Shown piece after piece: positions 1 to 1,979 of a stretch of DNA of 1,979 nucleotides; positions within the stretch are counted from its first letter, which is position 1; each line of letters starts with the position of its first letter. Location: assembly GCF_003334815.1 (NCBI RefSeq), contig NZ_QOWO01000090.1. One strand, given 5' to 3'. This DNA comes from Escherichia coli. Lineage in GTDB: Bacteria > Pseudomonadota > Gammaproteobacteria > Enterobacterales > Enterobacteriaceae. The translations under genes were made by a program, and so were the position numbers. Below the pieces are notes generated by a model, which saw nothing but the letters and a program-made list of their open reading frames with translations, made no database searches and had not been told where the DNA came from.

Positions 1-810
1 AACCAGATGGACCCGGTGTACACGCCGGCGCGAAAAATCCACCTGTACCACTGCGACCATCGCGGCCTGCCGCTGGCGCTTGTCAGCACGGAAGGGGCAA
101 CAGAATGGTGCGCAGAATACGATGAATGGGGCAACCTGCTGAATGAAGAGAACCCGCATCAGCTGCAGCAGCTTATCCGCCTGCCGGGGCAGCAGTATGA
201 TGAGGAGTCCGGCCTGTATTACAACCGCCACCGCTATTATGACCCGCTGCAGGGGAGGTATATCACTCAGGATCCGATTGGGCTGAAGGGGGGATGGAAT
301 TTTTATCAGTATCCGCTGAATCCGGTTCAGTATATAGATTCAATGGGACTGGCATCAAAATATGGACACTTAAATAATGGCGGATATGGAGCGAGACCCA
401 ACAAACCGCCTACGCCCGATCCAAGTAAATTGCCGGACATAGCGAAACAATTAAGACTGCCATATCCTATTGACCAGGCCAGTAGTGCGCCTAATGTTTT
501 CAAAACATTCTTCAGAGCATTAAGCCCTTACGACTACACACTGTATTGCAGGAAGTGGGTAAAACCAAATCTGACTTGTACGCCACAGGATGATTCCCAG
601 TATCCAGGGATGGATACAAAGACAGCAAGTGATTACCTGCCACAGACAAATTGGCCAACAACTCAATTACCACCAGGATATACTTGTGCAGAACCCTATT
701 TATTCCCAGACATTAATAAACCCGATGGGCCAGCAACAGCAGGGATAGATGATTTGGGTGAAATTTTAGCTAAGATGAAACAGAGAACATCGAGAGGAAT
801 AAGAAAATGA
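1..810 (+). CDS. Rhs-family polymorphic toxin, 3' portion (5'-partial; gene begins upstream of the window). Core end is 1-351, variable C-terminal tip is 352-807, stop TGA is 808-810.
   Basis: Frame 1 is open from base 1; the ATG at 7 is an internal Met, not the true start. The translation ends in a typical Rhs core terminus (YDEWGNLL...[45 protein letters not shown]) with the DPxGL-(17 aa)-DxxGL boundary motif, followed by an unrelated 152-aa extension. GC content by eye falls from high-50s percent to about 40 percent at position 352. Confidence 0.9.
352..807 (+). other. Variable Rhs C-terminal tip (putative toxin domain, about 152 aa, unassigned family)
   Basis: Begins immediately after DSMGL (ends at nt 351). 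AT-rich relative to the core. Pro/Tyr/Thr-rich, with 3 Cys (residues 181, 191 and 227 of the track ORF). No nuclease, deaminase or ADP-ribosyltransferase motif recognisable by eye. Confidence 0.6.
794..798 (+). promoter_or_regulatory. Ribosome-binding site for the downstream immunity ORF
   Basis: GAGGA lies 8 nt upstream of the ATG at 807, inside the 3' end of the toxin CDS. Confidence 0.45.
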
Positions 811-1376
811 AAAGAGTTTTGTTCTTTTTGCTGATGATATTTGTTAGTTTTGGTGTTATAGCTGATTGCGAAATACAAGCTAAAGATCATGATTGTTTTA
901 CTATTTTCGCTAAGGGTACTATTTTTTCCGCGTTTCCTGTCTTAAATAATAAAGCCATGTGGAGATGGTATCAGAATGAGGACATCGGTGAGTATTATTG
1001 GCAAACAGAACTGGGTACATGTAAAAATAATAAATTCACACCAAGCGGGGCGAGACTCTTAATTCGCGTCGGGTCACTACGCCTTAATGAAAATCATGCC
1101 ATCAAAGGAACGTTGCAGGAGTTGATAAATACAGCAGAAAAAACGGCGTTTCTCGGCGATCGGTTTAGAAGTTATATAAGAGCGGGTATCTATCAAAAAA
1201 AGAGCAGTGATCCAGTTCAGTTGTTGGCAGTCCTTGATAATTCAATCATGGTAAAATATTTTAAAGATGAGAAACCAACTTATGCTCGAATGACAGCACA
1301 TCTCCCGAACAAAAATGAGTCTTACGAATGTTTAATAAAGATACAGCATGAACTAATTCGTAGTGAAGAGAAATAA
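807..1376 (+). CDS. Putative Rhs immunity protein (189 aa) with predicted N-terminal Sec signal peptide; function inferred from position only
   Basis: The ATG at 807-809 overlaps the toxin TGA at 808-810 (ATGA). A GAGGA Shine-Dalgarno sits at 794-798, 8 nt upstream. The N-terminus [22 protein letters not shown] has a basic n-region, a hydrophobic core and a V-I-A signal peptidase I-like site. AT-rich like the toxin tip. Its position directly 3' of the Rhs tip is the canonical immunity gene location. Confidence 0.75.
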
Positions 1377-1601: not shown

Positions 1602-1979
1602 ATGGAACTTAAAAAATTGATGGAACATATTTCTATTATTCCCGATTACAGATAAGCCTGGAAAGTAGAGCATAAATTGTCAGGCATCCTACTATTGACT
1701 ATTTTTGCCGTTATTTCTGGTGCAGAAAGTTGGGAAGATATAGAGGATTTCGGGGAAACACATCTCGATTTCTTGAAGCAATATGGTGATTTTGAAAATG
1801 GTATTCCTGTTCACGATACTATTGCCAGAGTTGTATCCTGTATCAGTCCTGCAAAATTTCACGAGTGCTTTATTAACTGGATGCGTGATTGCCATTCATC
1901 AAATGATAAAGACGTCATTGCAATTGATGGAAAAACGCTCCGGCACTCTTATGACAAGAGTCGCCGCAGGGGAGCGATT
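1602..1979 (+). pseudogene. H-repeat-associated protein / ISAs1-family transposase, N-terminal part (3'-partial, runs off window), interrupted by an in-frame TAA at 1653-1655
   Basis: Frame 3 translation: [125 protein letters not shown]. From memory this matches the N-terminus of enterobacterial H-rpt (ISAs1-family) transposases, which are classically found next to Rhs elements. The stop sits where I recall homologs having Gln (CAA). Confidence 0.8.
1602..1979 (+). mobile_element. H-rpt / ISAs1-family insertion element, left portion. The true left boundary probably lies somewhere in 1377-1601 but cannot be placed.
   Basis: Transposase reading frame as above. No terminal inverted repeat can be defined because the right end is outside the window. 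Confidence 0.6.

Follow-up and report, generated by a model that had tools for sequence, protein, structure and literature searches.

The annotated ybfO/ybfC stop-start overlap of Escherichia coli as a conserved, plausibly coupled junction between a Rhs C-terminal tip and a presumed immunity gene

The ATGA studied here, in a 1,979-bp stretch of E. coli DNA (the window), is the already annotated junction between ybfO and ybfC of the RhsC element, and as a stop-start overlap it is ordinary and already known. Read together with its relatives, we hold with moderate confidence that it forms the conserved boundary between the two genes of a Rhs cassette, in which a toxin tip is followed by a Sec-exported, presumed immunity partner, and that the two genes were translationally coupled ancestrally, the overlap in the present copy being mostly a relic.

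The window was 100% identical to positions 819751-821729 of the chromosome of E. coli O26:H11 11368 (NC_013361.1), and full-length 100% matches were also found in many further E. coli chromosomes of the O26/O103/O111 type. Gene order in NC_013361.1 is rhsC, ybfB, a Rhs pseudogene, ybfC and an ISAs1 pseudogene; by that annotation the window lies directly 3' of rhsC and ybfB and spans the 3' part of the Rhs pseudogene (product name 'RHS repeat-associated core domain-containing protein'), ybfC and the start of the ISAs1 transposase pseudogene (Table 1). The Rhs element ends at the ISAs1-family pseudogene, which lies outside the junction. In the RefSeq annotation of K-12 MG1655, ybfO (b0703, pseudogene; 734220-735653) and ybfC (b0704; 735650-736219) have the identical 4-nt overlap. 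The tip/ybfC segment (661 nt) was 100% identical across K-12 strains, and of 5426 complete E. coli genomes, 3605 carried the tip/ybfC module. A scan of the window against Rfam returned 0 matches at E ≤ 1.

Table 1. Features of the 1,979-bp window, with positions counted from its first base and the basis of each assignment.
Feature	Position	Strand	Basis
Orphan Rhs fragment, 3' part (K-12 ybfO; RefSeq pseudogene 'missing N-terminus')	1..810	+	Open from window edge; TGA 808-810
End of conserved G+C-rich Rhs core	7..351	+	Pfam RHS aa 11-47; TIGR03696 Rhs_assc_core aa 38-115; DPIGL at 271-285
Variable C-terminal tip, 152 aa, presumed toxin domain	352..807	+	Family searches, alignments
Shine-Dalgarno (SD)-like GAGGA in codons R263-G264	794..798	+	Sequence; 8 nt before ATG
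ATGA: ybfC start ATG 807-809 overlapping presumed toxin stop TGA 808-810	807..810	+	Sequence, annotation
ybfC, 189 aa, presumed cognate immunity protein, predicted beta-sandwich	807..1376	+	ORF, annotation, alignments, AF2 model
Predicted Sec-type signal peptide of YbfC, aa 1-19	807..863	+	Alignments; low pLDDT of residues 1-18
Predicted RNA hairpin: SD region 792-804 pairing with U-rich signal-peptide codons 817-829	792..829	+	Folding; allele-specific
T-rich run TTTGTTCTTTTT	818..829	+	T8 or T9 homopolymer in O157:H7-lineage genomes
ISAs1-family (H-repeat) transposase pseudogene, 5' part, internal stop TAA 1653-1655	1602..1979	+	Sequence, annotation

Positions 791-811 read c g a g a g g a a t a a g a a a A T G A a. 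The ATG and the TGA have two bases in common and GAGGA lies inside the last codons of the upstream ORF, just as the earlier note had described from the letters. The upstream ORF (7..810) extends leftward to the window edge without a stop, over at least 269 open codons, and its tail is R-G-I-R-K-stop, with R263 (AGA) and G264 (GGA) forming the SD-like core; the spacer between this core and the A of the ATG occupies 799-806. The duplex energy of GAGGA with the anti-SD was -6.0 kcal/mol, a value that was reached at 10.9% of the positions of the region, and the SD was therefore graded as moderate and not strong. On the + strand, the tetramer ATGA was observed 20 times versus 12 expected from base composition, and the one at 807 is the only meeting point of two long ORFs (at least 269 and 189 codons). 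At the other ATGAs except the one at 834, the downstream ORF never exceeded 52 codons, nor the upstream open run 40; the ATGA at 834 is the M10 codon inside ybfC, with 0 open codons upstream. The TGA comes free with Met1 and a second codon starting with A (Lys AAA). What does not come free is that the presumed toxin frame is open and in register up to exactly the ATGA in all relatives.

The ybfC frame has a TAA at 771-773 and no ATG, GTG or TTG from there to 807, which makes 807 the first possible start. Among 21 YbfC homologs (59-92% identity), Met1 was invariant, Lys2 nearly so, residues 4-18 were hydrophobic, and Ala19 was nearly invariant. A different start, for example the ATG at 834 (Met10), in which case the ATGA would not be a functional stop/start overlap, is extremely improbable. 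That ATG is in frame, opens an ORF of 180 codons and is the only ATG still in register with the rest of YbfC in the T9 frameshift allele of O157:H7. Across the homologs, however, residue 10 is M, V, I, A, P, T or S; no SD precedes the codon, a start there would strip the signal peptide of its positively charged n-region, and 807 is the start chosen by gene callers and by RefSeq in all loci. With Met1 invariant, Met10 variable and the predicted signal peptide beginning at Met1, 807 was taken as the true start of ybfC, and the alternative start that the earlier note had allowed for was not borne out.

The N-terminus of YbfC consists of MKR, a hydrophobic stretch of 15 residues, and V-I-A before D20. 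The pattern V-I-A/D fits cleavage by signal peptidase I, and in some relatives, which read I-A-A-C or L-A-S-C, a lipobox also fits. Partners of YbfC at 20-34% identity also have predicted N-terminal signal peptides. In the AF2 model of YbfC the beta-sandwich body was confident and residues 1-18 were poorly modelled (low pLDDT). YbfC had no relative in Pfam or in the PDB, and it is called a 'putative secreted protein' in a source annotation (PMC6033998). Judged from these features of its sequence, YbfC is probably exported via a Sec-type signal peptide.

Within aa 1-115, the upstream ORF matched the end of the Rhs core, both in NF041261 RHS_core (positions 1147-1261) and in TIGR03696 (84.7 bits versus a cut-off of 32.5 bits), with Pfam RHS (PF03527) matching the first part of the same region. 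The encoded DPIGL is a core end of the PxxxxDPxGL type, and a variable tip follows it, as is required of a Rhs cassette. The GC fraction was 0.57-0.59 in the Rhs core and 0.30-0.44 in the tip and ybfC; a fall in GC from the core to the tip and downstream gene is the usual Rhs pattern. The assignment of the upstream ORF as a Rhs C-terminal tip, i.e., the place where Rhs toxins sit, is supported.

The tip has the invariant motifs SPYDY..YC..W and P.GY.C..P..FP, three invariant cysteines, and a conserved tail R-G-x-R-K. Single-sequence and profile searches returned no relative of the tip in Pfam, NCBIfam or the PDB, and by Pfam and PDB searches neither the tip nor YbfC was related to any characterised toxin or immunity family; the AF2 model of the tip had a pLDDT of 40.4. 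A profile search of 1.84 billion representatives returned only 27 tip relatives (clusters), all of them Rhs C-termini. All first matches to the tip were of at most 253 aa; that it exists only as fragments was ruled out by the full-length Rhs genes found in genome context. The probable export of YbfC and the three invariant cysteines of the tip together point to the periplasm of attacked cells as the likely place where the toxin acts; we infer this site of action, as well as the toxicity of the tip and the immunity function of YbfC.

The window holds an orphan member of the cassette, as its ORF is N-terminally truncated while relatives carry full-length Rhs. In locus L001, the open frame spans 8260-9810 and starts immediately after the ybfB stop codon; what lies behind rhsC-ybfB is an N-terminally truncated pseudogene and not a delivery-competent, full-length Rhs. 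A scan of in-frame starts and their anti-SD pairing found no canonical start in the orphan ORF. Anti-SD energies at its in-frame ATGs ranged from +0.6 to -5.6, with just -3.2 kcal/mol at the first ATG, which is the K-12 ybfO start; the sole good in-frame SD is a GAGGAG (-8.9 kcal/mol) before a CTG at 214, 57 nt before the DPIGL codons. Orphan tips are generally reported to lack translation initiation signals, their immunity genes being expressible (PMC3150448). The label 'toxin' given earlier to the upstream ORF thus holds insofar as a Rhs C-terminal tip lies there, but has to be qualified in that the ORF is a displaced fragment (a RefSeq pseudogene) without N-terminus or canonical start.

Loci of YbfC relatives came from a genome collection or from exact-protein look-ups, and those bearing the presumed toxin came from E. 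coli, Phytobacter, Citrobacter, Kluyvera and Salmonella. The junction AGA GGA NNN AGA AAA TGA AA was identical in every toxin-bearing relative fetched, except for AAA in place of the first AGA in L008. It was kept in full-length Rhs genes of E. coli at the rhsB locus (L015, 1395 aa) and at the rhsC locus (L016, O157:H7-type, 1399 aa), of Phytobacter ursingii (L007, 1392 open codons), of C. portucalensis (L019, 1381 aa), of Kluyvera intermedia (L020-22, 1384 aa) and of S. salamae (L023, 1394 aa), the full-length Rhs with the tip in these loci being of 1381-1399 aa. It was also kept in the E. coli orphan, in two orphans of C. portucalensis (L017 and L018, 272 aa) and in two decayed orphans (L008 and L009), found in C. 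youngae and Phytobacter. DUF6531 was recorded for L019-L023, and vgrG-like genes were found nearby in L017, L018 and L025.

The variable codon of the tail took six forms (ATA, GTG, GTT, GGG, GCA and GCG), and the five conserved tail codons were synonymously fixed; an invariant codon was found in 29/72 of the conserved-residue columns of the tip, which gives a naive p of ~0.01, uncorrected for phylogeny. Codon rarity was discarded as a sign that AGA-GGA is a selected SD, as AGA is the main Arg codon of the AT-rich module (11/17); it carries no weight, and synonymous invariance across genera alone remains. Part of the conservation of the junction is uninformative on coupling, since Met1 and an A-starting codon 2 (Lys2) keep the TGA automatically.

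Four distant tip relatives, with YbfC partners at 20-34% identity, had ATGA in two cases (L025 and L029), a 14-nt overlap in L027 (GTG start, TAA stop), and a 1-nt gap in L030 (TAG-t-ATG). A YbfC-like gene of 188-194 aa followed every tip relative fetched, down to a profile E of ~1e-11. By comparison of these loci, the tight juxtaposition of tip and YbfC is read as ancestral, and ATGA as its dominant state. Because the junction is common to all toxin-bearing relatives fetched from those five genera, including the full-length genes, and ATGA also to two of the four distant ones, ybfO-CT and ybfC were taken as one inherited cassette. The proposal that the two ORFs are one functional unit is in this sense sustained, as a unit of inheritance: tip and YbfC-like gene co-occur at a tight junction even where the partners are that distant.

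In the ancestral full-length context, which is extant in O157:H7-type E. coli, E. coli WCHEC4533, Phytobacter, Citrobacter, Kluyvera and Salmonella salamae, both genes would be on one mRNA. A ribosome ending the Rhs protein of ~1,400 codons would terminate at the UGA, one base after the AUG of ybfC, and the GAGGA/GGAG 8 nt upstream would retain a 30S or 70S particle, so that ybfC would be re-started by termination-reinitiation. Reinitiation would have immunity made whenever the toxin is. Co-transcription and this coupling mechanism are what we infer from the arrangement of the loci. No terminator-like site was found on the + strand between the genes within positions 1-1700; (ybfOC) is listed as one operon (PMC3946193), and in STEC, transcript levels of ybfC and rhsC increase jointly (PMC6033998). 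A literature search on ybfC and ybfO returned passing mentions only, with no experiment, ribosome profiling, expression or function study found.

Strict coupling was measured in 4/5 E. coli ATGA pairs with an internal SD, and without the SD reinitiation fell by 60-90% (PMC6728339). The arrangement had been called typical of translationally coupled toxin-immunity pairs; those measurements uphold coupling for ATGA with an internal SD, but ATGA is not distinctive of Rhs toxin-immunity pairs, whose eight junctions in K-12 vary. Translational coupling at ybfO/ybfC is plausible. In the window, the cassette would have been displaced downstream of a newer tip (rhsC-CT/ybfB) and so become an orphan. 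Since the presumed toxin ORF has lost its N-terminus and start, the overlap here was taken as mostly an inherited relic, and coupling in the orphan copy is possibly vestigial. From the orphan copy, YbfC would be made via direct SD-dependent initiation at 807, or via coupling to low-level translation entering the orphan frame.

It is rather unlikely, though with several observations in its favour, that the overlap is a by-product of compact packing and that YbfC arises from de novo SD-dependent initiation at 807 only. ATGA is the commonest overlap in prokaryotes, and even the few flanking regions fetched contained other ATGA pairs (ybgA/phr and nikD/nikE). About 15% of co-directional prokaryotic gene pairs overlap, and bioBF is the uncoupled one among five E. 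coli ATGA pairs (PMC6728339). Independent initiation is further consistent with an orphan without canonical start, as orphan tips in general are without initiation signals (PMC3150448), and with GAGGA at its 8-nt spacing being a usable SD. It is also consistent with three toxin-less loci (L004-L006; Citrobacter sp., Pseudocitrobacter vendiensis and Escherichia sp.), which keep an intact ybfC of 188 aa behind ISAs1 fragments. In these loci the tail of the presumed toxin has decayed to GAA GGT ATT AGA TAA TGA, with a stop directly before the ATG and a weaker SD; coupling is therefore dispensable for keeping ybfC. Against initiation at 807 as the only route stand the synonymous invariance of the tail codons across genera, the full-length versions, which put a translated ORF before the junction, and the predicted structure of the window's own mRNA.

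In the window allele, a hairpin masking the SD was predicted (MFE -24.8, z = -2.64), with the SD nearly fully paired (P unpaired 0.01), and initiation would be hindered unless an upstream ribosome opened the structure. In the L015 allele, which is 97% identical, the SD was unpaired with a probability of 0.45, and in other relatives with one of 0.5-0.66. The hairpin as a family feature proving obligatory coupling was ruled out by its absence in the L015 allele and in most relatives. Anti-SD energies at the junction ranged from -6.0 to -12.5 kcal/mol across relatives, with the SD of the window at a usable spacing of 8 nt.

An arrangement resembling a type II toxin-antitoxin system was also considered, in which an internal promoter and a non-canonical start in the end of the core would yield a cytoplasmic tip, ATGA-coupled to YbfC as antitoxin. 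For Salmonella rhs, a promoter inside the gene, 89 nt ahead of the motif, and CTG/ATG starts in main and orphan copies are reported, with similar promoters in E. coli (PMC7043789), and the best start in the orphan frame of the window is the CTG at 214 behind its GAGGAG. A promoter consensus scan found none there, however, with a total of 8 sites versus 5.0 ± 2.5 expected from shuffling, which is not above chance, and the E. coli counterpart of the -35/-10 of Salmonella P2 is degenerate (ATGATG/TACAAC); an internal cassette promoter was rejected on these two grounds. In addition, a signal peptide is predicted in YbfC and in all its relatives, and an exported protein would be a poor cytoplasmic antitoxin, while the three invariant cysteines of the tip suggest action outside the cytoplasm. 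A cytoplasmic toxin-antitoxin module at this locus is accordingly judged very improbable, and the preferred reading remains that of a junction inherited from a full-length Rhs cassette with an exported partner.

Genomes of O157:H7 carry the tip on full-length RhsC. In ybfC of the O157:H7 lineage, a T tract is in frame as T8 and frameshifted as T9, and ybfC was frameshifted in 222 genomes. A bolder proposal is that the tip and YbfC are an uncharacterised, periplasm-acting Rhs toxin/immunity family strictly coupled by the ATGA and its SD, so that synthesis of the secreted immunity partner is bound to that of a T6SS cargo in the cytoplasm, and that T8/T9 slippage 15 nt after the start switches immunity on and off in O157:H7; in this complete form it is speculative and quite unlikely to hold.

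The junction itself matters little, as the overlap is in the K-12 reference annotation and termination-reinitiation is a frequent outcome of an ATGA with an internal SD. What the comparison adds is that ybfO-CT and ybfC are a genuine co-inherited cassette, which is full-length in O157:H7 and in other enterobacteria, and the predicted exported partner points to a Rhs toxin acting in the periplasm. The full-length, orphan and toxin-less loci are three natural contexts in which the contribution of the ATGA to expression of immunity could be gauged, and ybfO-CT/ybfC is a concrete candidate pair for toxicity and immunity.

Compared with known systems, the junction of the window does not differ from that of K-12 ybfO/ybfC, which is the same locus with the same annotated overlap. 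In K-12 rhsC/ybfB and other Rhs pairs, as here, the tip is followed by a small co-directional ORF with an SD in the last codons of the tip, but rhsC/ybfB has TAATG with GGAG 7 nt upstream, in contrast to the ATGA of ybfO/ybfC. The eight tip/downstream junctions of K-12 Rhs elements comprise overlaps of 1, 4, 17, 20 and 29 nt and gaps of 20, 39 and 254 nt, with ATGA in ybfO/ybfC only. [quoted passage not shown] Coupling was measured in those pairs, whereas ybfO/ybfC is known from sequence and its upstream fragment has no defined start; moreover, the ybfC product is predicted to be a secreted protein rather than a complex partner.

The closest parallel in organisation is with the orphan rhs-CT/rhsI and cdiA-CT/cdiI modules (Poole et al., 2011, PMC3150448; Koskiniemi et al., 2014, PMC3967940; Starsta et al., 2020, PMC7043789), in which a displaced tip with some core and its own immunity gene likewise lie behind the main pair. 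Toxicity and protection were demonstrated for the published orphan pairs, whereas ybfO-CT/ybfC is so far a pair defined by its sequence. The RhsI proteins studied in Salmonella are cytoplasmic, unlike YbfC with its predicted signal peptide. The internal type II toxin-antitoxin-like module of Starsta et al. (2020; PMC7043789) is characterised by a promoter and a cytoplasmic antitoxin, neither of which was found for ybfO/ybfC.

An N-terminal signal peptide (window 807-863) was present in YbfC, the presumed immunity protein, and in every relative, down to 20% identity (alignments A1 and A5). In the same alignments, C30 and C175 of YbfC were invariant across the whole family, and C21 and C72 inside the close clade; the tip, the variable C-terminal part of the Rhs protein, had three invariant cysteines. 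Neither the tip family nor the YbfC family had a Pfam or PDB relative. The signal peptide and the invariant cysteines of both proteins suggest a periplasm-acting Rhs toxin with YbfC as its exported beta-sandwich immunity protein.

Full-length RhsC (1399 aa) bore the same tip as the window in O157:H7-lineage genomes. In those genomes, a T homopolymer lay within codons 5-8 of ybfC (see table). The T8 form was in frame (strains NE92 and 53_142304). The T9 form was frameshifted, and its ybfC carries a pseudogene annotation; exact matches to the T9 junction occurred in 222 of 5426 complete genomes. The difference between T8 and T9 could reflect slippage-prone phase variation, or else fixed loss of the immunity gene where the full-length toxin was kept. 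The predicted hairpin sequestering the Shine-Dalgarno sequence (SD) was confined to the K-12/O26 allele, and the single change T817C in the allele of L015, a full-length Rhs at the rhsB locus, abolished it.

Coordinates of features at and around the presumed toxin-immunity junction
Feature	Location	Strand	Detail
T tract in ybfC	window 818-829; L016 (O157:H7-type rhsC locus) 7479-7494; L032 and L033 about 749-764		
Predicted hairpin	window 792-829	+	13 pairs, mainly A-U/G-U, between the SD and U-rich codons of the signal peptide
ISAs1-family (H-repeat) transposase pseudogene	window 1602-1979	+	17 codons, then an in-frame stop (TAA, 1653-1655)
Candidate CTG start at 214, toxin frame	window 203-216	+	GAGGAG before CTG; anti-SD -8.9 kcal/mol

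Homologs of ybfC without toxin (71-72% identity) were intact at 188 aa in Citrobacter sp. (L004 1660), Pseudocitrobacter vendiensis (L005 7001) and Escherichia sp. (L006 222). All three were preceded by a decayed ex-toxin tail (...GAA GGT ATT AGA TAA TGA) and had ISAs1/H-repeat transposase fragments directly 5', whereas in the window the H-repeat element was 3' of ybfC. The K-12 name of the window's transposase pseudogene is ybfQ, "inactive transposase", and a constitutive sigma-70 promoter is listed between ybfC and ybfQ (PMC3946193).

In L001, a longer E. coli locus, the main pair rhsC/ybfB overlapped by one base (TAATG, 7931-7935) with GGAG 7 nt 5'. The orphan ORF opened straight after the ybfB TAA stop, in the ybfB frame (8257-8290), and its Rhs core homology began about 30 nt past that stop. 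On the 3' side of full-length Rhs, L015 (8206-10418) and L016 (8309-9365) have arrays of additional orphan immunity genes; these small genes carry the annotations NTF2-fold immunity protein, DUF6258 and yibA (HEAT-repeat protein). Two short contigs with 98-100% identity to the window's locus were part of MAGs that bear the labels Flavobacterium psychrophilum and Candidatus Nanosynbacter, almost certainly through binning contamination.

Within the orphan ORF, CTG 214 and its GAGGAG formed the top SD-start pairing, and the DPIGL codons began 57 nt 3' of this CTG. It may be an internal start, as a CTG is reported to be in Salmonella rhs (PMC7043789), although the E. coli counterpart of the Salmonella rhs promoter position (PMC7043789) was degenerate.
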